NCBI GenBank assembly: GCA_965140585.1
Contig: OZ223272.1
Span: 128,001 to 192,000 of the forward strand
Reading direction: 5' to 3'
DNA from: Spirochaetia bacterium
Lineage (GTDB): Bacteria > Spirochaetota > Spirochaetia > UBA9216
Length of the DNA: 64,000 nucleotides
Below are positions 2,208 to 14,011 of this stretch, piece after piece; position 1 is the stretch's first letter; each line of letters begins with the position of its first letter. The position numbers and the translations under genes are program-made. The notes beneath the pieces are model-generated. The model ran no database searches, was not told the origin of the DNA, and was given only the letters and a program-made list of their open reading frames with translations.

Positions 2208-2286
2208 ATTTTTCACTCCTGTTAAAACGAGGATAATACAGTATATACGACAGCACTATGTCATAGTTAAAAATTATTATTGTTTT

Positions 2287-2946
2287 TTATAACTCATCAT
2301 GTTCGAGAAAGGAATAATAGCCCTTAGTATTAAAGATGATATGATCAAGAAAATTAAGCCTTAACATATCAGATGCATTCTGAAGCATTCTGGTGACTCT
2401 AAAATCTTCATCACTTGGTAAAATTTCACCTTGCGGATGATTATGTGCAACAATTATGGCAGAAGCCCTTTCAGATAAGACATCAGCAAAAACTTCCCTG
2501 GGATGTACTTGCGTTTTGTTAACAAGGCCAATGGTGACAACACGAATACTCATTACTTCATGAGCCCCATTTATGGAAACACAAAGAAAATGTTCCTGTT
2601 TTCTGTCGGAGTAATGCTGTATTAAAGGCAGAACATCTGCCGGGAACTTAATTTTCAAACCTTCAGGTTTAATTCGTCTTCTTACAAACTCAAAAGCTGC
2701 ATCTATTGTTGCAGCCTTCGCAGAACCAATACCATTAACATCAATTATATCATTAGCCGAAAAAGAAAGTCCTTTTTCATCGATAATTTTAACGATTTTA
2801 CTGGATAATGATAGAACATCCTCATTTTTCGATCCCTTACCAAGAATAATTGCAAGTAATTCCTGGTCTGATAATGATGATGAGCCGCTATGAAGAAGTT
2901 TTTCTCTGGGACGATCGGCAAGTGGAATATCTTTTATTCGTTTCAT
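2287..2946 (-). CDS. radC: RadC (JAB/MPN domain) protein
   Basis: RPREKL, LSDQELLAI, HPREVF, AHNHPQG...SDED, DHII motifs. Confidence 0.93.
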   Translation of the reverse strand: MKRIKDIPLADRPREKLLHSGSSSLSDQELLAIILGKGSKNEDVLSLSSKIVKIIDEKGLSFSANDIIDVNGIGSAKAATIDAAFEFVRRRIKPEGLKIKFPADVLPLIQHYSDRKQEHFLCVSINGAHEVMSIRVVTIGLVNKTQVHPREVFADVLSERASAIIVAHNHPQGEILPSDEDFRVTRMLQNASDMLRLNFLDHIIFNTKGYYSFLEHDEL

Positions 2947-2947
2947 T

Positions 2948-3967
2948 TCAGGAGGAGATTTTTTCAGGAATAAAGATTATATCTTTGCTGCTGTAGACTT
3001 CCACCACCTGTCCTGATAGATAGGAATCATCAAATATTACAAAATTATCACCTGAGCCAAGAGAACTTTTAAAGATAATCCCGTCATACCCGTTATCTTT
3101 GATTAATTCGCAGAGGTATTGTGTAGGTAAGTACTCAAAATCTTTCATATAAGGAAGAACCGGGATAGAAAGTGCTACACTAAGGTGATTAAGAAATGGA
3201 ATAAACTCAGTATAAATCATAGATAAATCATCATGCACGAATGGAGAAATGCTTTTTCCAGGGTTTCTTAAATCAATCATTTTTAAATTATTATCAAGAG
3301 AAAAAGAAGCTACATATACAATTTCGCTCTTATACGGTCTGGTCTCTGAAATAGCAGTAGTTACATCACTTGCACCATAGAAATATGAGATGCCCTTCGG
3401 GTTTGCCCTCCCATCTGGGGCTTTTCCTTCAGGAGGTTTTCCCATCTTATCTATCGAGTATGGACTACCATCGCCTTTCAACCTGGCTCTATAAATATAA
3501 TCAGGAATACAACTCTTATCTAATTCCAAATACCCGATAAGCAGTATTAATTGTTCCTGCTCTATTTTCTTCTGAGGGAAGAAGCGATTCCGATGCCGTA
3601 ATTCCCTGGAAAACTCTTCCCAATTTTTAATAAATTGACTTTCGACATTTTCAGGGGCTTTTACTTTCAATTGAATCAGGTTTTCATCATCCATTATACT
3701 GGTTAATAATTGCTCAACAACAGTACTATCTAAAGATTCATTAAAGATATGCCAGTCTTCCTGAAGTAAACCTGCAAGAGGAAGGCCGTCCTCTGAAACT
3801 TGATAAAAATCAATGACGGGTAGAAACAGATCCATCAATTCAACTGCATTTATAAATGAAACTGAGGCTGTACTATTGCAAAAAGAGCATGTGCCCCTGT
3901 TAGTCGAAAAGGTTTCGATATGTCTTTTGATAAAACTATCGTTAAAACAATCAGGACAGCATAACAC
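2948..3967 (-). CDS. RES-domain protein (NAD+-consuming ART fold) with N-terminal Cys-rich region
   Basis: CCPDC...CSFC at N-terminus; YRAR, GRANPKGISYFY, AISETRP, YLPTQYLCE, GYDGIIFKSS. Confidence 0.85.
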   Translation of the reverse strand: MLCCPDCFNDSFIKRHIETFSTNRGTCSFCNSTASVSFINAVELMDLFLPVIDFYQVSEDGLPLAGLLQEDWHIFNESLDSTVVEQLLTSIMDDENLIQLKVKAPENVESQFIKNWEEFSRELRHRNRFFPQKKIEQEQLILLIGYLELDKSCIPDYIYRARLKGDGSPYSIDKMGKPPEGKAPDGRANPKGISYFYGASDVTTAISETRPYKSEIVYVASFSLDNNLKMIDLRNPGKSISPFVHDDLSMIYTEFIPFLNHLSVALSIPVLPYMKDFEYLPTQYLCELIKDNGYDGIIFKSSLGSGDNFVIFDDSYLSGQVVEVYSSKDIIFIPEKISS

Positions 3968-3968
3968 C

Positions 3969-4922
3969 TTAGTTTATTCCCCTTAGATATTCAGCAACCA
4001 GTTCAACATGGTGCTGCATCGAAAGCTTTTTTACATATCCTAAACCTGGGAAATGTTTATGTTCGAAAAGTTTGAGATATTCACCAAGAGCCCTGGATTT
4101 AAAAATCTTTGAATCAGGTCTGTAAACTTCATCAACCAGTTTCTGCAGGGCTTCAAGAAACTTACCGCCGGGATTGGTGGGAGAATCGGTCTGATCTGAT
4201 ATGAAATGATAAATAAACATGTCATCATCCTTATCATCATCAATATAAGTCAGATGAATTGCCACAGCATAGGCGGGTCCTCCGGAATCACGGAATTCAT
4301 CTCCCACAATCAGAAAATCACCGAAGCCATCCATCCCTTCATCCGGAAAAGTAATGTGCAGATCAGAGAAATGCTCGAACGGAGGATACTGGGAGTTTTT
4401 CTTCTGTATACGAAACCCGTCCCGAATGAGAATTCGCTGTACACCTTCCTGTTTAAACTGTCTCTGATAAAGCTTGCTTGTCTGTTCCTCAATAAAAACA
4501 TGTCTCTTGATACTCATATTCCCATCAACGACTTTTACCAAATCCTTACCGTTGGTATAACCGTAATGGATTAATGATACATTGCGGTGCTGTTTACCCT
4601 CAAGAAATCCAGTTAGTTCATCTAATTCTGATCCGGCATGTAAAACAAAACCAAGTGATGTAACTTTATTATCCTTCATAATTTCATCAAGTAAATCATC
4701 GGGAATAATCTCATGGGAGCTGTAATCGCCAACCTGCGGATTAACTACAAGTGTATGCACAACTCCATTTTTTACCAACTCGGATACGGCTTTTAACAAG
4801 GCCGTCGAACTGAACTTTACAGGTTCGATTATGGGATGTATGTAATTTTCCTTAAAAAAAGCAGCATTACCCCGAAGCAGAATCAGCTCATTCTGCTTTC
4901 CTCTTAGAAACGGATAGTACAT
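3969..4922 (-). CDS. sce7725-family protein
   Basis: MYYPFLRGKQNEL start, PIIEPV, GFGDFLIVG, GGPAYAVAIHLTY, HFPGLGYVKKLSMQHH end. Confidence 0.85.
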   Translation of the reverse strand: MYYPFLRGKQNELILLRGNAAFFKENYIHPIIEPVKFSSTALLKAVSELVKNGVVHTLVVNPQVGDYSSHEIIPDDLLDEIMKDNKVTSLGFVLHAGSELDELTGFLEGKQHRNVSLIHYGYTNGKDLVKVVDGNMSIKRHVFIEEQTSKLYQRQFKQEGVQRILIRDGFRIQKKNSQYPPFEHFSDLHITFPDEGMDGFGDFLIVGDEFRDSGGPAYAVAIHLTYIDDDKDDDMFIYHFISDQTDSPTNPGGKFLEALQKLVDEVYRPDSKIFKSRALGEYLKLFEHKHFPGLGYVKKLSMQHHVELVAEYLRGIN

Positions 4923-4932
4923 TAATTACTCC

Positions 4933-5826
4933 CTATTCTGATATAACAATTTTTCTTACCTCTGCATCATATTTATCTGATAAAGCATTCAGCTTTTGTA
5001 AATTACCTGCATTATTAATAATATAAGCATACAAAGATTCCGGAGCTCTATTCAGTAAGGTTTCAATTGCAGATTTCTTATCACGATTTTTAAGAACATC
5101 AAAGGTTTTGTCATGGATGATTTCAGGATCCTGACGGCAGAACATTGCCCTGCATTCATCGAATATCCGGGTATTGGGAACATCAGGAACGTAGCCGTAA
5201 ATACTTTTTATAACTTCAAGATACTCATTCTTTCTTAAAGAATTGAACAGAAATTCGGGTCTAACATTATGTTTATTGGAGATAGATATTTTATGGATTT
5301 GAATCGTACAATCATCTGAAATACATAATATTCCAACATGAGCGGGCAATTTCCCATCCAGTTGCTCAGTCTGAGCCTGTGAGGTAACAACATATATATT
5401 ATCAAAAACATTACCATAGGCTTCAATCTGATCATCAAGCCGCCTGAAAGAATCAAACTGCGATTTAATTTCGTAGACAGTTGAAGTACCGTTTAAAATA
5501 ACAACATCAGCCCGGCGCTTTCCTACACGGAATTCGTTAAGCATCCAAGAGTTCTGAAGTGAATGTCTTTTTAATAGCAGTTCCCTGGTAATTTCATTTT
5601 TATAAAGATATTCATTTCGGTAATTCAATGAAAGAAGGCTATAAATATCGTTTAGAAATGAACGAAACGACTGTGAAAGATCGATTCTATTTATCAGATT
5701 GCTGTTTTGAAGCACTTCATACAGATAATCGGAGAATCCATTCTCAGCTATCTTATCAAGAACAAGGGGAGTAAAAATTCGGCTTAGCGGGTTTAAATAA
5801 CAGGGATCAACGACTAAATCAGACAA
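4933..5826 (-). CDS. sce7726-family protein (PD-(D/E)xK nuclease-like)
   Basis: YRNEYLYKN, EFRVGKRRAD, VYEIKSQFD, RLDDQIEAY; TTG start with AGGAGG SD. Confidence 0.85.
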   Translation of the reverse strand: MSDLVVDPCYLNPLSRIFTPLVLDKIAENGFSDYLYEVLQNSNLINRIDLSQSFRSFLNDIYSLLSLNYRNEYLYKNEITRELLLKRHSLQNSWMLNEFRVGKRRADVVILNGTSTVYEIKSQFDSFRRLDDQIEAYGNVFDNIYVVTSQAQTEQLDGKLPAHVGILCISDDCTIQIHKISISNKHNVRPEFLFNSLRKNEYLEVIKSIYGYVPDVPNTRIFDECRAMFCRQDPEIIHDKTFDVLKNRDKKSAIETLLNRAPESLYAYIINNAGNLQKLNALSDKYDAEVRKIVISE

Positions 5827-5877
5827 TTACCGGCCTCCTTTTGTTCAATGATAATTACGATGCTGTTCTTTATTTAA

Positions 5878-5886
5878 ATTATACCA
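5878..5886 (-). promoter_or_regulatory. Extended -10 promoter for the sce7726 operon
   Basis: TGGTATAAT on the minus strand in the gap between hsdS and sce7726. Confidence 0.55.
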
Positions 5887-5893
5887 TCACTAA

Positions 5894-7204
5894 TTACTTT
5901 TTCGATCTTTTAGTTGATTTCTTAACAGCCTTTAATTCTGCTTCCATCTTTGCCTTCTCTTCCATTATTCGTTCCAGCAGTCTCTCAGCGGGTTCATCAT
6001 TTGGATCCTGCGGCACAAGCTCGCCCCGAAAAGCCTTGGCAAGAACAGACTGAGAAAGCTTATCAACTCTTGACTTTGCTTCATTGTAATGAGCTTCGAC
6101 CTTATCCGCCAGAGCAAAGAGTTTATCAACCTGTTTCACGATTTCTTTTTGTTCCTCGAGGGGAGGGAGATAAATTGACGTATCCATTACTATTGCTTGA
6201 TTAATTTTTGGCATACTTCCAGCAGTGCCAGTAGCATTACTTCGAAAATAATCAAGAGTTTGATAACTTTGTAGCGACAAGACAAGAAAAGAAGGTAATA
6301 CTAATTCTTTATTAGCTTTAACTTTCATCATAAGATCAGGATATATAAATTCATAACTGTTTCCGTTATAGATTGCTGAAATACCCACATAATTAATTGA
6401 ATTACTTCGCTGTATTAAAATATCATCTTTTTCTAACCATAAATAAGAATCATTTTGTATATCTTCATCAATATATTTAAAACAAGAACTATCAAATGTT
6501 CCTGATGTTGTCGCAGTAAGGCTAAGTGATTTAACTGGAGTTTCATACTTCACTGCAGTTGGGGAATATCCATTTCTAGGTTTGCCAATGATGATATCAA
6601 TAAGTGGTACTACTTTAGATTCTACCTCGGTATGCTCTTCCCGCCACTTCTCAGTTAGCCTTCCAGTTACTGCTGCTGTCAAGACTGATTGCCGGTAGCG
6701 TTTCATAATAACAGGAACCTTCTCCAACCGCTCTTTCACTGTCTCAATCCGTGGCATAATAGAATCAAGCTTGGCTACAATACGTTTTTGCTCGTTAAGG
6801 GGAGGGAATAAAATCGAAAAACCTACTAAATTTTCAATTGTTACCTGTGGTTGTGCAGTGCCTGTAACAATAGTGCTTTTATCACTATTGTATAATGAAT
6901 AATACAAAAACTTATTACAATTATAATACTCAGCAGGTAATTCTATAATAAGAGAATTAGATGTTATGTAACACTTTGGAGGTGAAATATTTATAACACC
7001 ACTATTTGCTCCACGACAAGATATTAATACTTGGGGTTTTTCATATAGGTATTCATTATAATACCCAATAATCGAGTTGGCGCCAAAAACTGGATATTTA
7101 CCAATATCATATAGTTGATTTTTAGACAAACCTTTCCCGTAAGCAATATTTGCTATCTTAGTAATTGCGACTTCAACCCATCCGCTCGGAAGGCCCTCAC
7201 TCAT
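5894..7204 (-). CDS. hsdS: Type I RM specificity subunit
   Basis: Two TRDs, each followed by PPLxEQxxIV; C-terminal AFRGELVPQDPNDEPA. Confidence 0.93.
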   Translation of the reverse strand: MSEGLPSGWVEVAITKIANIAYGKGLSKNQLYDIGKYPVFGANSIIGYYNEYLYEKPQVLISCRGANSGVINISPPKCYITSNSLIIELPAEYYNCNKFLYYSLYNSDKSTIVTGTAQPQVTIENLVGFSILFPPLNEQKRIVAKLDSIMPRIETVKERLEKVPVIMKRYRQSVLTAAVTGRLTEKWREEHTEVESKVVPLIDIIIGKPRNGYSPTAVKYETPVKSLSLTATTSGTFDSSCFKYIDEDIQNDSYLWLEKDDILIQRSNSINYVGISAIYNGNSYEFIYPDLMMKVKANKELVLPSFLVLSLQSYQTLDYFRSNATGTAGSMPKINQAIVMDTSIYLPPLEEQKEIVKQVDKLFALADKVEAHYNEAKSRVDKLSQSVLAKAFRGELVPQDPNDEPAERLLERIMEEKAKMEAELKAVKKSTKRSKK

Positions 7205-8646
7205 TCAGTTTCCTCCGCCTCAATCTCATCCAGTATCAGCTGTAGCTCATCAACACAGGCGCTAAGTTCGGTAATGGCATCCGCAACCAATAGCTGCGGG
7301 TCGGGCAGTGAATTGGGATCTTCAAGGTTTTCATCCTTCAGCCAGCTAATATCGAGGTTGAAGTTACGATCTTTAATCTGTGAATAAGCAAATTTTCTGA
7401 ACCGGCCTTCTTCGCCAAGATCTTTACGCCTGGACTGCCCGTTTGGATCTTCGCCATAACAGACTTCAAAGTCCTCAAACATGGCCGGAGTAAGAGGTCT
7501 GTCCTTCTTTGTTACTCCGGGAATATTGGTGCGGCAGTCATATATCCAGGTTTCTTCTGTCTTAAGTCCTTTCTGAAAGAAGAGAACGTTTGCCTTTACT
7601 CCCTGACTGTATGGGGTGAATGTGCCATTGGGAAGACGCAGTACCGTATGTACATTGCAGTCTTCCATCAGGTACTTGATAACATCTCCTGCCTGGTCTG
7701 CAAAAAGAACGTTATCCGGTAAAACCATAGCAGCCCGTCCGCCGGGTTTTAGAATAGTAACAACATGCTGAATAAAATTAAGCTGCTTGTTACTGGTGCT
7801 CACTGTAAAATCATCACGGACCGGGGCCTGGTTTGCTCCCTTTGTTCCAAAAGGAGGATTAGTCAGAATACAGTCATAGCGTTCGCCTCGATCCGGCTCA
7901 TAGATGCTGTCTCCAAGATAGATCTGCGGTTCCAGCCCATGCAGAAAAAGATTCATTAGAGCAAGTCTCCGCGGTCTGGGAACCAGTTCCTGACCATAGT
8001 AGGTTTCTTTTTTTATTCTAAGCACGTCCTTACGTTCGAGAGCACCTTTGGTTATTTCCATAAGCCACTCATAAGCAGCCATCAAAAATCCTGATGTCCC
8101 GCAGGCTGGGTCACATATCTTGTAATCTTTGGCAGTTCTTGGGTCAGGCTGCATAACCTTTATAATAGATTGAATAAGAGGCCGCGGGGTAAAATACTGC
8201 CCTGCCCCCTTCTTGCCTTCTGCCGCGGACCTCTCAAGCAGGCCCTCAAAGGCTGCACCCTTTACATCAACATCCATTGAAGACCAGTCTTCTTCATCTA
8301 TCATATTGATAACGCGTTTAAGGTTTACCGGATTGGTAAAACGGGGCATAGCCTGTGTAAAAATATCTCCAAGAAGGCCGGATTGTCTGCTTAAAGCCCT
8401 TAGAATCTGAGAAAAGGCATCAAGCAGCTCGGTACCAGATTTTTCAGTAAAGGGTGTCCAGGAACAATCAAGAACTATTTTCTCTTTGTTCTCTTCATAT
8501 TCAACTTTAGATAGGTCAATTCCCTTCTCATGTGACATCTTTAGAAACATAAGATAGGTAAGCTGTTCGATATAATCACCGTAATCAATACCGTCATGGC
8601 GTAGGGTACTGCAGAACCCCCAGAGTTTATTTACTACATCCGACAT
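7201..8646 (-). CDS. hsdM: Type I RM N6-adenine methyltransferase
   Basis: GQYFTPR, DPACGTSGFL, NPPF motifs; 4-bp overlap with hsdS. Confidence 0.95.
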   Translation of the reverse strand: MSDVVNKLWGFCSTLRHDGIDYGDYIEQLTYLMFLKMSHEKGIDLSKVEYEENKEKIVLDCSWTPFTEKSGTELLDAFSQILRALSRQSGLLGDIFTQAMPRFTNPVNLKRVINMIDEEDWSSMDVDVKGAAFEGLLERSAAEGKKGAGQYFTPRPLIQSIIKVMQPDPRTAKDYKICDPACGTSGFLMAAYEWLMEITKGALERKDVLRIKKETYYGQELVPRPRRLALMNLFLHGLEPQIYLGDSIYEPDRGERYDCILTNPPFGTKGANQAPVRDDFTVSTSNKQLNFIQHVVTILKPGGRAAMVLPDNVLFADQAGDVIKYLMEDCNVHTVLRLPNGTFTPYSQGVKANVLFFQKGLKTEETWIYDCRTNIPGVTKKDRPLTPAMFEDFEVCYGEDPNGQSRRKDLGEEGRFRKFAYSQIKDRNFNLDISWLKDENLEDPNSLPDPQLLVADAITELSACVDELQLILDEIEAEETE

Positions 8647-8659
8647 GTTAATTCCTTAT

Positions 8660-11329
8660 TTAAGCTGCAAGAGTTGTGTTTATTTCATTGATCAATGATT
8701 CAAAATCAGTCCCAAAAATCTGTTTTGCCTTGGATAATCCGCCGTGACGTTCAAAAACCGGCATTATTTCAAAATCTTCACTTGAAATAGCAAGGTTTTC
8801 TATCAAGTGCTCTTTGATATAGGCAAGCCATTCAAGCTGTTCGTCATTAAAAGCATGGGCATTAACAATTTTACCGACAGCCTTTTCTACCCTTTCCTTT
8901 GCAGAAAACAACAGATCTTCCTCATTGGAGGCATGTTTTATCATTGATATGATATCGGCAAGTGGTTTTTTATAAACCAACTCATGCCCTCGCTGCAGAT
9001 CTCTTTCTGAAAAATCACTCTTTTTGAGCTTATCACGCAGCTCATCAAGAGCATCAGTATTCCATCCGGATGGTCTGGAAAGAAGGATCTCAATTGCGTC
9101 TATATGTTCCGGATTATTCCGTACAAACTCATCAAAGAGCTTCAGATAATCTTCAGGTTTTTGGTAATCTCCACCAACGCGGAATAAAACTTCATGCTCA
9201 ACTGTGTCTTTGATATCATATCCCTTTAAAAAGATCTTCCCCGGACGAGGATAATCTTCCAGCAGCTTCTGAAAATCCTTGTTCCTGAGAAGGTTCATGG
9301 TTTCAGTAAAGTTATTTTTAAGATTTTCTTTTAACCCATCGGCAAAAGCCTTTATATCACCGTCCGGAATATATTTCGAAAAAGCTTCCCGTGCTTCTGC
9401 ACCCATGTTGTTCTCAATCCGGCGCAGCCTTTTTATAAGCCTGCTGGTATTATAATCTCTGTCACGGTTATCATAGATACGTTCAATGATTTCGCTTATC
9501 GGAACTGTTTCACTCTGGATGTTGACCTTGAAATCGGTTGTGTTTTTAAAATATTCAATCAAACTGCCGTCAAAGCAATCGAAGATAGTAAACTTTTCCT
9601 TATGGATTTCAGGACATTTGCGGGTTCCCCGCCCCAGCATCTGAACCCACATGATACGTGATTTGACGACACGCATAAATACAACCATTTCTATAGCCGG
9701 AATATCGACACCTGTTGTAAGCATATCAACTGTTACGACAATCTTAGGTTCGGGACGGTTTCGGAACTGACGAATCTTCTGTAATGGACGGTCAACAGTA
9801 GGGCTGCCAGTTATCTTCATTACAAAATCATCACCCTTCCCAAAGATTTCTTTGCATGTATTCACTACTTCATCGGCATGCGAAACGTGCGGCAGGTCAT
9901 TTACAGCAAAGATCAGCATTTTAGGAAAGCGATGGTATTTTTGTTCATGCTCATCTGTATAGACTTTGATAGCAGTGATTATTTTTCTGATACTGTCAGG
10001 CGAGGTGATTTTCTGCTCTATCTCACCGGCACTGAATTCCCGTTCATCCTCCAGCTCATCAAGCTGTTCGGCACCAGTTACCGTATCAATTTCACCAACC
10101 AGTTCACCCTCTTTCAGAAAAGCACCGTTGATATGGATATCTGATTTAATCTTGACCGCATCGTAATCAACTAAATGCCCCTGAAGAACAGCCTGCTCAG
10201 TGCTGTATGTAAACACCTTGTTCTTAAACAAAGCCAGAGTATGAGTTGCAGGAGTAGCTGTAAGCCCAATCTTAACCGCATCAAAATAATCCATGACATA
10301 CTTCCAGCGCCCCGTCTCTTTAGCAGAATAGCCTCGGTGGCATTCATCGGCAATGATTATATCGAAAGTATTAATAGGTATATCCAGCTTGTTTGCTTCT
10401 ACATCATACTCAAAATCGCTTACGGCTTCTTTACCCAAAAGGTTTATAGACATCCTCTGAATTGTAGAGACGTAGATGAATGCATGCTTTTCCTGGGGAT
10501 TTGTTAGATAGGCTTCCGGTAAGACCTGCGGATCAAACTTTGTATCTTCATCAAGATCTTCACGTTTAAATTTCTGACTGTAAACCTCATAATCCTGATT
10601 TAATTTTAAGCCTTCCGGTGTTTCAAAGGCACAGATAGCCGAAACTGCCTGTGCCGCAAGGGCCCGCCTATCAACAAGAAAGAGAATACGCTTTGCATAA
10701 CCTGATTTAAGTAAACGGTAAATTGATGAGACCAGAGTGAATGTCTTACCTGTACCGGTAGCCATTGCGATTAGCATAGTTTTTTTGCCGTTGCAGATTG
10801 CATTTTCAATAGCCTCAACTGCCTCAATCTGGTAAGGACGCAGCCTGGATATTTCTGAAACCGGCCGTTCATCAAACCATTTTTCAGACTGTTCAATATC
10901 ACGGTTGTATTTATCAAGCAGCGCCTGCGGAGAATGAAAATCTGCTATCTGATAAGAGTTATTTTCTCTCTTTCTTACATCAAGATGAAAAATAAGCTCT
11001 CCGTTTGTTGAATATAAAAAAGGAACCTTATATTCCCTCCACTGACCGACTGTCTCAGGGACACCCTTAGAATAGCGCTTTGCCTGTTCAAGAACATTTT
11101 CAGCCCCGACAGATAATTTCTTCGCTTCTATAATTCCAAGCAGCTTTCCCTGCACAAAAAGCGCATAATCAGCAGGGCCAGTCTCAGTTGGATATTCTTC
11201 AACAGCATGGGCAGATAAAGCGGATATGTCCATTCCATTGAAGAATGGCACAATTTCCCAGTTAAGCAGTGGCGAAGTTAGTTTCGTATCTATTCTTTTC
11301 TTTCGGGTTTTAGCTTCTGATTCATTCAT
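8660..11329 (-). CDS. hsdR: Type I RM restriction subunit
   Basis: GPADY...IEAKK nuclease motif, MATGTGKT, DECHR, QMLGRGTR helicase motifs. Confidence 0.95.
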   Translation of the reverse strand: MNESEAKTRKKRIDTKLTSPLLNWEIVPFFNGMDISALSAHAVEEYPTETGPADYALFVQGKLLGIIEAKKLSVGAENVLEQAKRYSKGVPETVGQWREYKVPFLYSTNGELIFHLDVRKRENNSYQIADFHSPQALLDKYNRDIEQSEKWFDERPVSEISRLRPYQIEAVEAIENAICNGKKTMLIAMATGTGKTFTLVSSIYRLLKSGYAKRILFLVDRRALAAQAVSAICAFETPEGLKLNQDYEVYSQKFKREDLDEDTKFDPQVLPEAYLTNPQEKHAFIYVSTIQRMSINLLGKEAVSDFEYDVEANKLDIPINTFDIIIADECHRGYSAKETGRWKYVMDYFDAVKIGLTATPATHTLALFKNKVFTYSTEQAVLQGHLVDYDAVKIKSDIHINGAFLKEGELVGEIDTVTGAEQLDELEDEREFSAGEIEQKITSPDSIRKIITAIKVYTDEHEQKYHRFPKMLIFAVNDLPHVSHADEVVNTCKEIFGKGDDFVMKITGSPTVDRPLQKIRQFRNRPEPKIVVTVDMLTTGVDIPAIEMVVFMRVVKSRIMWVQMLGRGTRKCPEIHKEKFTIFDCFDGSLIEYFKNTTDFKVNIQSETVPISEIIERIYDNRDRDYNTSRLIKRLRRIENNMGAEAREAFSKYIPDGDIKAFADGLKENLKNNFTETMNLLRNKDFQKLLEDYPRPGKIFLKGYDIKDTVEHEVLFRVGGDYQKPEDYLKLFDEFVRNNPEHIDAIEILLSRPSGWNTDALDELRDKLKKSDFSERDLQRGHELVYKKPLADIISMIKHASNEEDLLFSAKERVEKAVGKIVNAHAFNDEQLEWLAYIKEHLIENLAISSEDFEIMPVFERHGGLSKAKQIFGTDFESLINEINTTLAA

Positions 11330-11371
11330 TTATAGACTTTTCCTATCTGGTTGAAATACAAACCAAAAAGA

Positions 11372-11400
11372 ATTATACCAAATATTCATCAGATATTGAA
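11372..11400 (-). promoter_or_regulatory. Sigma70-type promoter of hsdRMS
   Basis: TTCAAT-N17-TATAAT with TG extension. Confidence 0.5.
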
Positions 11401-11406
11401 ATCAAA

Positions 11407-11454
11407 AATCCTCTAAAATCGCTCCCCGCCCTTACCTGATATAATTCGTGGCCA
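11407..11454. repeat. 48-bp direct repeat, copy 1 (downstream of GxxExxY gene)
   Basis: AATCCTCTAAAATCGCTCCCCGCCCTTACCTGATATAATTCGTGGCCA; 46/48 identical to copy 2. Confidence 0.9.
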
Positions 11455-11476
11455 CCCCTCTCCCCCTATAAGAGGC

Positions 11477-11839
11477 CTAAACAACAAGACGCTTCCATTC
11501 AAGGCTTGAGACCTGAAAGTTTACAAGTAAACCAAGTTTGCAGCCTGAAATATGCAGATAATTGATAAGCTGGGCAGTGTGTTCAGGGGCCAACGTCTTT
11601 ACAGACTTGAGTTCTATAATTACTTTGTTTTCTACAACAAGATCAGCAAAATACTCACCTACCGTTTCCCCCCTGTATTTAACTGTAAACGGAACATTGT
11701 ACCCCGTACTTAAACCAGCAGCCTTTAGCTCATAATAAAGCGCATTATGATAGCACTGCTCAAGCAGCCCGGGGCCAAGCCCACTGTGAACTGCCATACA
11801 GCAGCCGATAATTTGAAAAGAAAGCTCTTTGTGAACCAT
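11477..11839 (-). CDS. GxxExxY protein (PD-(D/E)xK-like)
   Basis: LGPGLLEQCY, ADLVVE...IELKS, AQLINYL, GLLVNF; start placed at ATG 11839 after AGGAGG. Confidence 0.92.
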   Translation of the reverse strand: MVHKELSFQIIGCCMAVHSGLGPGLLEQCYHNALYYELKAAGLSTGYNVPFTVKYRGETVGEYFADLVVENKVIIELKSVKTLAPEHTAQLINYLHISGCKLGLLVNFQVSSLEWKRLVV

Positions 11840-11842
11840 ACC

Positions 11843-11973
11843 GGTCCTCCTTCGTTTTCTTTCCGTAAATACGAAGTTCACTTTTTCGGAGGTCAAGGAT
11901 TTGCCGAAGGCAAACTTGCTGCAGTCCTTGACCGGAGAAAAATGAACAGTAAAATTAAAAGAACGAAGGAACC
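11843..11973. other. Long imperfect inverted repeat (hairpin) upstream of GxxExxY
   Basis: Nested arms 11848-56/11962-70, 11876-87/11937-47, 11891-99/11925-33; inner TTTGCC-GAA-GGCAAA. Confidence 0.8.
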
Positions 11974-12010
11974 ATATTGAATAGCCTGGCCCTCCCTTCT
12001 CCCGCTCCTC

Positions 12011-12058
12011 AATCCTCTAAAATCGCTCCCCGCCCTTACCCGATAAAATTCGTGGCCA
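12011..12058. repeat. 48-bp direct repeat, copy 2 (upstream of GxxExxY gene)
   Basis: AATCCTCTAAAATCGCTCCCCGCCCTTACCCGATAAAATTCGTGGCCA. Confidence 0.9.
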
Positions 12059-12110
12059 AGGATTCTACAAATTAATCACCAAATACTACCCGCTATAGCC
12101 AGATACCTGC

Positions 12111-12149
12111 TTGCATCAACAATATTGTCTGACTAAAATCAGATAATAT
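12111..12149 (+). promoter_or_regulatory. Promoter with overlapping palindromic operator for the MarR-GNAT gene
   Basis: TTGCAT-N17-TAAAAT; ATATTGTCTGA-N6-TCAGATAATAT inverted repeat spans the -10. Confidence 0.6.
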
Positions 12150-12996
12150 GAATAATATTGAGATTATGCGGGAATTCAACCGCACCGTAACCCGAAGCAT
12201 TGGTATATTCAACGGACAGTATCTCGGCCGGCCAAGGCCTCTGGCTGCCTCGCGATTAATCTATGAAATAGGCACACAAGGGGCGGAGATACGCTCACTG
12301 AGGGACAGGCTCGGCGTTGATTCAGGCTACATGTCACGCCTGCTTCGTATGCTTGAAAAGGAATCACTGATTAATATTGAACCGTCTCCAAAGGATCGAA
12401 GAATTCGGCAGGTCCAGCTGACCGGAGCGGGAATTCTTGAACTGAAGGAACTGAACAGACTTTCAGATCTTGAGATGACAACATTACTGAAAAAACTGCC
12501 TGAAAAAAAACAGCAGCTTCTTACCGAAGCAATGAAAACAGTCGAACAGCTGCTTGAAACAGCTGCTGTTCAATTGATAAGAGTCGAAGAATCTGATACC
12601 CGGGCCCAGAAAGCTCTTGAATCGTACTATTCTGAACTTTCAGACAGATTCGGGAGGCACTTCGATCCGGGACAAATGGAGAACGGTATATTTTTTATTG
12701 TGGAGCTTCATGGAGAAACAGTCGGATGCGGAGCTGTGGTGATGTATCCTGATTTTGCCGAGGTGAAAAGAATGTGGGTAGCTCCGTCATGCAGAGGCCG
12801 GGGAATCGCTTCAAAAATACTTACACAGCTTGAAGAAGAAGCCCTCCGGGCCGGACAAAAAACCGTCCGGCTGGATACCAACGATAATCTGAACGAAGCA
12901 AAGGCTATGTATCGCAGATACGGTTATCATGAAATTAAAAGGTATAATGACAATCCATTCGCTCAGCATTTCTATGAAAAGGTTATTGCGCCCTGA
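12148..12996 (+). CDS. MarR-family wHTH fused to GNAT acetyltransferase
   Basis: DSGYMSRLL...DRR wHTH; EVKRMWV, RGRGIA, RLDTN, YNDNP GNAT motifs. Confidence 0.88.
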   Translation: MNNIEIMREFNRTVTRSIGIFNGQYLGRPRPLAASRLIYEIGTQGAEIRSLRDRLGVDSGYMSRLLRMLEKESLINIEPSPKDRRIRQVQLTGAGILELKELNRLSDLEMTTLLKKLPEKKQQLLTEAMKTVEQLLETAAVQLIRVEESDTRAQKALESYYSELSDRFGRHFDPGQMENGIFFIVELHGETVGCGAVVMYPDFAEVKRMWVAPSCRGRGIASKILTQLEEEALRAGQKTVRLDTNDNLNEAKAMYRRYGYHEIKRYNDNPFAQHFYEKVIAP

Positions 12997-12997
12997 A

Positions 12998-13540
12998 CTA
13001 TGCTAAAACTCTCTCCCGGTAGATAATATCCAGAGCTATTTCAATGGCCTTGGTTATCGCGACCCCGCAGGATGGATGTTTGATATTGTACTCATTTCCG
13101 TTTTCATTATCCATGCTAGGTACAAAATTCAGCTCCTCGGGCATATCCCAGCTGAAAGATTCAAGCTCAGACTCCAGTATGTCCTCACAGAGCGTAGTGC
13201 TCAGTAAATCCTTAAATCTTGCGACAAATTCCTCAGTAAGCTCCCCGAGCTTTTGATCACGGGCGGTTTCATCAGCATTCTTTTTCAAAGATTCCGCTCC
13301 GAATTCCAGCCCCAACGCTACTCCGGCGGCAGTAACAGCACCGCAAAGCTGCCCATGCCTCATCCCTCCGCCCATAGCGGCCATTATTTTAAGAGCCATA
13401 GACTCATCAAGACCGATATAAGGCGCTATCCCGCACAGACAGGCCTGTGAACAGTGATTATTAAGGCTCTTTGTCTGGAGCCCCAGGCTGCATGCCTTAT
13501 AAATTAATTCAGCTTTTTTACTCTCGACTAAATTTTCCAT
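12998..13540 (-). CDS. C-GCAxxG-C-C family putative redox protein
   Basis: CSQA, GGGM..GQLCGAVT, TTLC, C-terminal Cys. Confidence 0.8.
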   Translation of the reverse strand: MENLVESKKAELIYKACSLGLQTKSLNNHCSQACLCGIAPYIGLDESMALKIMAAMGGGMRHGQLCGAVTAAGVALGLEFGAESLKKNADETARDQKLGELTEEFVARFKDLLSTTLCEDILESELESFSWDMPEELNFVPSMDNENGNEYNIKHPSCGVAITKAIEIALDIIYRERVLA

Positions 13541-13545
13541 CTTAA

Positions 13546-13595
13546 AATCCTCTTAAATCTCTCCCAGCCCTTTCCAAATATACAATTCGTGGCTA
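13546..13595. repeat. Diverged third copy of the GxxExxY-flanking repeat
   Basis: AATCCTCTTAAATCTCTCCCAGCCCTTTCC...AATTCGTGGCTA, same orientation. Confidence 0.75.
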
Positions 13596-13600
13596 AACCA

Positions 13601-14011
13601 CTATTTCCCCATATTCTCAAGAAAAGCGTACAAATCAGGGGCACGTTTTTTAAGGTTGATCACATTAAGATTCGTATCTGTCCAGCCGTGCATGGTCTTA
13701 CCGGTGGCAAGCAGTTCACCGTCATCCTTGCGTCTAACCTCATAGGCCATGGCAAATCTTGCTATCGTAAGTTTTTCAACAATACACTTAACGATGATTC
13801 TTTCACTGTATTTTGCGCCAGCCATGTAATCGCATTCAAGATGCGAAAGTGGAGTCATAATTCCCTCAGATTCTATTCTCGTATACGGGTATCCGGCTTT
13901 CTCAAGCATATCAGTTCGGGCAGCTTCAAACCATATGGGATATACAGAATGGTGAACGACACCCATCTGATCAGTCTCAGCATATCTAACAATTATTTCA
14001 GTTTCTGTCAT
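13601..14011 (-). CDS. Acyl-CoA thioesterase (YbgC/4HBT hotdog family)
   Basis: VRYAETDQMGVVHHSVY..WFE.AR. Confidence 0.9.
   Translation of the reverse strand: MTETEIIVRYAETDQMGVVHHSVYPIWFEAARTDMLEKAGYPYTRIESEGIMTPLSHLECDYMAGAKYSERIIVKCIVEKLTIARFAMAYEVRRKDDGELLATGKTMHGWTDTNLNVINLKKRAPDLYAFLENMGK

Follow-up and report, generated by a model that had tools for sequence, protein, structure and literature searches.

A GxxExxY nuclease gene between direct repeats at the edge of a spirochaete restriction island: a conserved cassette and a candidate class of repeat-flanked units

The 604-bp unit in the window

We analyzed a 64,000-nt stretch of a Spirochaetia bacterium genome (assembly GCA_965140585.1, contig OZ223272.1, positions 128,001 to 192,000), called the window here, and within it a 604-bp unit in which two 48-nt direct repeats enclose a gene of the GxxExxY family. 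With the copy at 11407-11454 as the reference, the second close copy is identical at 46 of 48 positions (96%), and the two start 604 nt apart. All that stands between them is one minus-strand open reading frame (ORF) for a protein of 120 aa and a long hairpin; plus-strand ORFs within the unit overlap the GxxExxY gene and appear spurious. A third, diverged copy starts a further 1535 nt away. It is 67% identical to the reference without gaps, can be aligned over its full length with a 2-nt indel (nhmmer E 4.7e-14 with a three-copy profile) and is 82% like the two copies of the unit. Similarity is lost sharply at both ends of the 48-nt repeat, and the 10-mer at its outer end, for which 0.13 occurrences would be expected in the window, is found there three times, a count that none of 100 shuffles reached. 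The original prediction, which was made from the sequence alone, described a discrete cassette whose repeats enclose only the gene and a hairpin leader, with a solo repeat copy 1.5 kb away, and all of this was borne out. The features are collected in Table 1; we refer to the repeat copies as modules. Read on the minus strand, the upstream flank module starts with the word GCCACGAAT and ends with AGAGGATT.

Table 1. Features of the cassette and of the restriction island, in window coordinates
Feature	Position	Strand	Remarks
Upstream flank module (repeat copy 2)	12011..12058	-	About 48 nt; 171 nt before the GxxExxY ATG
Leader with long imperfect hairpin, then GGAGG ribosome-binding site	11863..11965	-	Conserved; match to covariance model R1
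GxxExxY / PDDEXK_3 gene, 120 aa	11477..11839	-	Stop codon included; PF13366 and TIGR04256 matches
Downstream flank module (repeat copy 1)	11407..11454	-	22 nt past the GxxExxY stop; hsdR starts 77 nt beyond it
Solo module (diverged copy 3)	13546..13593	-	Takes up the 60-nt gap that separates a thioesterase gene from a C_GCAxxG_C_C gene
hsdR	8660..11329	-	First gene of the type I restriction operon after the cassette; matches type I models
hsdM	7201-8646	-	Type I restriction operon
hsdS	5894-7204	-	Type I restriction operon
Type I restriction island, 9.85 kb	2270..12120	.	Absent from the same-genus genome G001

The 120-aa protein matched PF13366 (PDDEXK_3) with an E value of 5.5e-40 and 136.8 bits, against a cut-off of 22, and TIGR04256 (GxxExxY) with 146.5 bits, against a cut-off of 35. 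Both the G-x-x-E-x-x-Y signature and a D...E-x-K motif are present: across 44 sequences G24, E27, Y30, D66, and K78 show no variation, and conservation of E76 is 90% or more. The AlphaFold (AF2) model of the protein has a pLDDT of 96.5, and a Foldseek search with this model returned Cas4 SSO0001 (4ic1_B, E 2.8e-5, TM 0.64), lambda exonuclease (3slp_A, E 4.6e-4), and the archaeal Hjc resolvase (2wiw_A, E 6.7e-3), all of which have the PD-(D/E)xK core in common with the GxxExxY protein. Hjc is close to it in size, whereas it is shorter than Cas4 by about 80 residues and aligns to the core only. At the level of sequence none of the three is matched, PF13366/TIGR04256 being a separate family, and a sequence search against solved structures (PDB) gave chance-level matches only (E 0.018). 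The family scores, the catalytic residues and the predicted fold agree with the original assignment to a PD-(D/E)xK-like family, and we predict that the protein adopts a PD-(D/E)xK nuclease fold. Among the PADLOC-DB defence models no family matched the protein at E 1e-5, and hsdR, hsdM, and hsdS matched type I models. The expectation that the gene would be multi-copy holds modestly: the 4.85-Mb genome to which the window belongs (G000) has six PF13366 matches, but only four of them are full length. The paralogues are 44-71% identical to the window's GxxExxY protein and are thus old.

The hairpin of the leader has a predicted RNA fold of -34.3 kcal/mol (z -4.38), as good as which none of 200 shuffles folded, and in an alignment of 12 sequences 16 of its 22 predicted pairs show compensatory changes. 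It is not followed by a T-run, and its wobble strand bias, with four GU/UG cells against five CA/AC cells, comprises too few cells to tell RNA from DNA. A search of Rfam gave no match in 11200-13800 at E up to 1. We then searched genomes with a covariance model of the hairpin, R1, scoring the best 150 candidates per genome; the window's hairpin is its match at C9:139863-139965. In G000 the model found five strong sites, each directly upstream of a PF13366 gene, together with a weak match at a gene fragment and reverse-strand echoes, and gene-less hairpins were not found among these candidates. In 11 genomes of the family it found 26 distinct sites, distributed over eight genomes, and a cross-match of the tables placed every one of the 26 directly upstream of a same-strand PF13366 match, several broken genes included. 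The hairpin is therefore a leader tied to the GxxExxY gene and not a dispersed repeat. The GxxExxY genes of the family have a common upstream order, in which a word block (CCAC-G/T-GA) is followed by a variable spacer, a conserved stretch, the long hairpin, GGAGG, and the ATG.

Modules and cassettes in relatives

The modules are unstructured blocks of about 50 nt, composed of phased, degenerate short words. At the same module positions relatives have two or three similar words, set at intervals of about 10 nt, and the 48-nt module DNA folds with -1.3, -4.6, and 0 kcal/mol, no better than shuffles. A promoter and terminator scan found no promoter-like site, sigma-70-like ones included, and no terminator-like site within the modules; a sigma-54 or sigma-70 reading of the module was also rejected by eye, the spacing seeming unsuited. 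On contig C1 of G000 one module lies upstream of the GxxExxY gene of that contig and another just upstream of a second C_GCAxxG_C_C gene, and the ends of the window's repeat coincide with those of the third copy and of the C1 modules. Since other loci and other genera have members of the same conserved module family, the repeat cannot be a 48-bp target-site duplication.

Of 29 loci of the spirochaete family, 25 have the forward word in the 400 nt before the gene; genome-wide, a near-identical word pattern would be expected about 0.13 times per 330 nt. The association of the repeat with other GxxExxY genes therefore holds at the level of the family, but not for the window's own 48-mer: the other four GxxExxY loci of G000 carry diverged modules of their own, and only the window's gene among the GxxExxY genes of that genome has long direct repeats on both sides. 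The closest homologue, at locus L015 in another genus (83% protein identity), is colinear with the window from module to module, with the same order of module, hairpin, gene, and module and a period of about 597 nt compared with 604 nt. There the cassette lies between a WCX/HTH regulator gene and cas3 of a CRISPR locus, and in L016, which belongs to the same subclade, between a WCX/HTH-type regulator gene and cas1. Module, covarying hairpin leader, ribosome-binding site, and the gene for the 120-aa nuclease thus form a conserved cassette.

The fifth position of the word is either G or T. On the protein tree of the 29 loci this word type changes four times, against a mean of 7.05 changes in shuffles, and six of 500 label shuffles reach four changes or fewer, a result that kinship among the loci inflates; paralogues within one genome differ in word type. 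The module and its word type are inherited with the gene lineage, a pattern that does not show that the protein reads the module. Several copies of the gene in the family are broken. One genome (G007, contig C1:9753-29049) has four PF13366 matches within 20 kb, three of them with the hairpin leader, beside a type I hsdR.

Pattern matches in a genome collection numbered 598, of which 524 encode relatives of the protein, and we kept 80 loci. In the flanks, CGCAAAG and 7-mers akin to it reach a 25-fold enrichment and occur in 50 of the 80 loci. Arrays of short words, direct or inverted, flank the gene in other phyla: in 47 of 70 loci the flanks contain some 7-mer four or more times, compared with two of 64 control windows from the same loci. 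By this measure the spirochaete loci are word-poor, with at most three repeats, except L033 and L034 with four each. When upstream and downstream flanks were compared in 73 loci, 11 were direct and five inverted at the 99th-percentile threshold and 14 direct and 31 inverted at the 95th (counted from the table), against a null that is inflated by words common among the loci. The flanks of the window score 43 for direct and 8.5 for inverted similarity. In ten direct cases the flank repeats span 35-176 nt and start 444-673 nt apart, a range that includes the 604 nt of the window. One cyanobacterial genome, which has two full genes, carries an exact two-word pattern at six places, one beside a GxxExxY gene and five elsewhere, while a control pattern gave none. 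In viral contigs a single peptide pattern returned one distant locus, which was uninformative.

Spread by module recognition and its rivals

The explanation that we favour, at about even odds, makes the 604-bp unit a member of an unpublished class of GxxExxY nuclease cassettes that are flanked by repeats and spread by module recognition. Beyond the conserved cassette with its co-inherited module, the steps of this proposal are ones that we infer. The nuclease would bind words in its own flanks and would cut or nick modules that do not hold the gene; repair from a filled copy, by gene conversion or by recombination between modules, would copy the cassette in, with a module at either end as in the window. 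If the direct modules recombined with each other, the cassette would be lost and a solo module such as that at 13546-13593 would remain. The hairpin may serve the protein itself as a site of control or processing.

Cassettes and modules stand at the borders of segments that differ between G000 and its sister species G001. At the C5 locus (L106) two inverted modules (3714-3750 and 6595-6631; 84% over 37 nt), 2.9 kb apart, bracket exactly a segment that G001 lacks, homology ending at 3761 and resuming at 6593. Both modules are present in G001 around other content (about 10 kb, against 2.8 kb). By eye, the right module abuts the apparent 3' end of a tRNA gene. At the C1 locus, G000 resembles G001 as far as the end of the gene, beyond which it has a CcdAB pair and a NERD gene specific to it, and at C6 a 4-kb segment holding the GxxExxY gene is absent from G001. 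The C7 gene is present in both species, as an intact single gene in G001 and rearranged into two fragments in G000; at this locus (L109, C7:465948-467460) about 780 nt of unique DNA separates two partial GxxExxY copies, and pieces of 98 and 145 nt are duplicated. In the window, G001 can be aligned up to 2269 and from 12121 on, with 38 nt in between. The cassette lies at the right (upstream) edge of the island thus delimited; both close repeats are inside the island, and the third is in DNA common to G001.

The spacer of G001 that is orthologous to that of the solo module also measures 60 nt, but it is about 38% identical (our own count) and gave no module match. Because this spacer is so unlike while the coding flanks are well conserved, the solo module appears to have been acquired or overwritten in the lineage of G000. 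Locus L033 contains a tandem series of units, each about 245-290 nt long and closed by inverted copies of the module; five singly captured junctions between them measure 19-20 nt and one of 504 nt holds a GxxExxY gene, a comparison of paralogous sites and not of alleles. About 9 kb of these units occupy L033 1-6360 and G006 contig C17:100141-109200, and there are smaller arrays on two other contigs. A reading of them as miniature inverted-repeat transposable elements was weakened by their occurrence in few tandem arrays in G006. For the selfish or mobile cassette of the original prediction there are thus the conserved cassette, the L015 layout, the lineage-specific solo module, and the filled and empty junctions of L033; what did not come to light is an empty allele or an excision joint.

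Several results weigh against spread by module recognition. No empty allele of the 604-bp unit was found in relatives, because the sister species G001 lacks the entire 9.85-kb island. A metagenome search for hsdR relatives gave two loci: L122, a close relative of hsdR with an intact start, has no GxxExxY gene and a different context, with a module-like stretch upstream of hsdR in the opposite orientation, and in L123 the hsdR start is missing. Neither was accepted as a true empty site, on account of the different context and the missing start. An excision joint or circle across the unit was not found in public contigs from three runs of one study, but contigs cannot show rare variants, and this result speaks neither for nor against excision. 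One of the runs has the whole stretch and may be its source, another has fragments that stop at the repeats, and no RNA data set with the unit was listed.

Copy numbers also count against spread. BLAST of the 48-mer against the 4.85-Mb genome returned the two close copies only, the three-copy profile returned the three window copies only (next match at E 0.18), and an iterated profile found six modules in all, three of them diverged and on contig C1. A genome-wide count of filled against solo sites was impossible in G000, because module copies are so few and long direct flanks occur at the window's gene only. Just five of the 29 family loci (the window, L015, L016, L137, and L126) have the forward word in the 70 nt after the stop, and direct flanks are therefore no constant feature of the cassette. 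Three GxxExxY loci are common in position to G000 and G001; because of this and because the paralogues are old, spread is slow at best. Four of the five G000 GxxExxY loci adjoin or lie in DNA that G001 does not share, which is no more than suggestive. The confinement of the L033-type units to a few tandem arrays in G006, where they are not dispersed, and the kinship that inflates the word-type test also count here, as does the placement before other genes of most modules not linked to a GxxExxY gene, considered below. Mobility is plausible, not proven. Nothing points to present activity in G000, with its few copies and old paralogues; the cassette probably arrived in this genome with the restriction island and is not spreading now.

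A wider proposal, which we advance only tentatively, is that GxxExxY proteins might be the enzymes of an undescribed and very widespread kind of selfish DNA. Each would be a minimal PD-(D/E)xK nuclease that recognizes phased short words in its own flanks, and its gene would be copied into gene-less word blocks in a break-induced manner. Since these blocks would serve as recombination points, the nuclease would also drive the exchange of neighbouring gene cassettes at defence islands, here a type I restriction operon and in a sister genus a CRISPR-Cas operon. In the spirochaetes this selfish DNA would have a variant form, whose modules are direct and poor in words and whose leader is structured and dedicated to the gene.

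The main rival to spread by module recognition, which we regard as rather unlikely, takes the module to be a cis-regulatory element, either an operator or a 5'-leader signal. The 48-nt duplication would give the GxxExxY gene and the hsdR operon one control site, GxxExxY would be an accessory gene of the defence island or a module-binding factor like a restriction-system controller, and nothing would be mobile. Consistent with this, six of the seven modules that do not belong to GxxExxY genes lie upstream of a gene and are co-oriented with it, the genes being hsdR, two of C_GCAxxG_C_C type, an XRE-type gene (C5), a WCX regulator gene, and cas3 (L015). The last bases of the solo module are the ribosome-binding site of the adjoining C_GCAxxG_C_C gene (at 13540), and a module end likewise supplies that of cas3 in L015, where modules precede the regulator gene, the cassette, and cas3 in a regulon-like manner. 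The two C_GCAxxG_C_C paralogues are 26% identical, and each has a module just upstream (13546-13593 and C1:434508-434589), which may mean shared regulation or a preferred insertion site. The regulatory explanation is opposed, however, by the lack of a sigma-70-like promoter in the module and of an Rfam family, by nuclease catalytic residues that are invariant or nearly so, and by the result that Pfam found no DNA-binding regulator domain in the GxxExxY protein. Moreover, the word type follows the gene lineage and differs between paralogues, which would be unexpected for one host factor; the long word arrays on both sides of the gene in other phyla, often inverted, are unlike an operator; and one module (C1:401630-401701) points against both of its neighbouring genes.

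The repeats could also be a neutral by-product, an explanation that we find improbable. In the island's previous host, the GxxExxY gene and the restriction operon would have come together through a recombination or replication accident that left 48 nt in duplicate, and the likeness to other modules would reflect only the shared ancestry of defence-island DNA. The genome indeed has only two near-identical copies, the cassette lies in horizontally acquired DNA, and 24 of the 29 family loci have no downstream module. Against an accident speak the repeat ends, which match those of the third copy and the C1 modules, the two-sided layout with a near-equal period in L015 beside different neighbours, and the word enrichment beside the gene across phyla.

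An integron-like cassette, with the modules as sites for a recombinase encoded elsewhere that excises and reinserts the unit as a 604-bp circle, would fit the alternating layouts of modules and genes in the window and in L015 and the swapped content between the C5 modules, but it is highly improbable given that the module is unfolded, unlike attC sites, and that the island holds no recombinase gene (integrases having been looked for in the island only).

Related systems and the restriction island

Among described systems, REPIN-RAYT appears the closest, with the same logic but another enzyme and another form of repeat. In REPIN-RAYT systems (PMC3116915), REP doublets go together with REP-associated tyrosine transposases. 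What they have in common with the spirochaete cassette is one small enzyme gene in the company of short, lineage-specific repeats, other copies of which have no such gene next to them; in both, the gene copy number is low and the element is suspected to be selfish or domesticated. The enzyme there is an HUH Y1 transposase, whereas here it has a PD-(D/E)xK signature, with PDDEXK_3/GxxExxY the only matches from Pfam and NCBIfam. The repeats there are palindromic inverted doublets and number hundreds, in contrast to the direct, unstructured modules here, of which G000 has six; the conserved hairpin here is tied to the gene and is not dispersed.

The unit also shares traits with three further kinds of element. 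Free-standing homing endonuclease genes are small nuclease genes between other genes, whose products cut at an empty site that is then repaired from the filled copy. They resemble the cassette in the intergenic position of a small nuclease gene, in the proposed route of spread, and in the occurrence of degraded copies; they differ in that the proposed target here is a repeated module and not a unique allele, and no empty orthologous site was found. To our knowledge, the GxxExxY family is not among the classical homing-endonuclease families. Intervening sequences of 23S rRNA genes carry an ORF in some cases. These offer the likeness of a small ORF of a multi-copy orphan family bracketed by sequences capable of pairing, which suggests that pairing or RNA processing might make the insertion harmless to the host; the present cassette, in contrast, lies between protein genes and has direct flanks and a hairpin that is upstream of the ORF, not around it. 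Integron gene cassettes are single-gene units separated by a repeated site, and like the present cassette they differ in content between relatives. Here, however, the site is unstructured and at the 5' side, with no imperfect palindrome of the attC type and no integrase gene nearby.

PF13366/TIGR04256 is a large orphan family across bacteria and archaea. In PMC3424549 the function of PDDEXK_3/PF13366/TIGR04256 is given as unknown, and in PMC8934634 GxxExxY only names a domain next to a reverse transcriptase. A published description of a repeat-flanked small nuclease unit of the GxxExxY type was not found in the openly accessible full-text literature. The unit in the window represents, for spirochaetes, a variant of a gene-plus-repeat unit that is widespread and apparently unpublished; its modules are direct and poor in words, and its leader is structured. 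If it is indeed a self-recognizing unit, the GxxExxY family would gain a testable function, many odd intergenic repeats and spurious small ORFs would have an explanation, and there would be a candidate agent for the swaps of restriction and CRISPR operons between relatives. The cassette described here lends itself to such tests, since it comprises just a 48-nt module, a hairpin, and a 120-aa protein.

The genes at 2287-11839 are all on the minus strand and comprise, in window order, RadC, a RES-domain protein, a sce7725/sce7726 pair, hsdS, hsdM, hsdR, and the GxxExxY gene. The left border of the island falls right at the RadC stop, and neither an integrase gene nor border repeats were seen in 2270-12120. 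The protein that stands alongside RadC, the sce7725/sce7726 pair, and the type I system combines HEPN/RES-NTD1 with the RES domain. Between the downstream module and hsdR (11330-11406) we noticed by eye an extended -10 element of the TGnTATAAT type and an ORF of 19 codons, the stop of which overlaps the hsdR start (TAAATG). On the other side of the cassette, and divergent from it, a gene at 12148-12996 encodes a fusion protein of 282 aa with both a MarR-type winged-helix domain and a GNAT acetyltransferase domain; this gene is conserved in G001.

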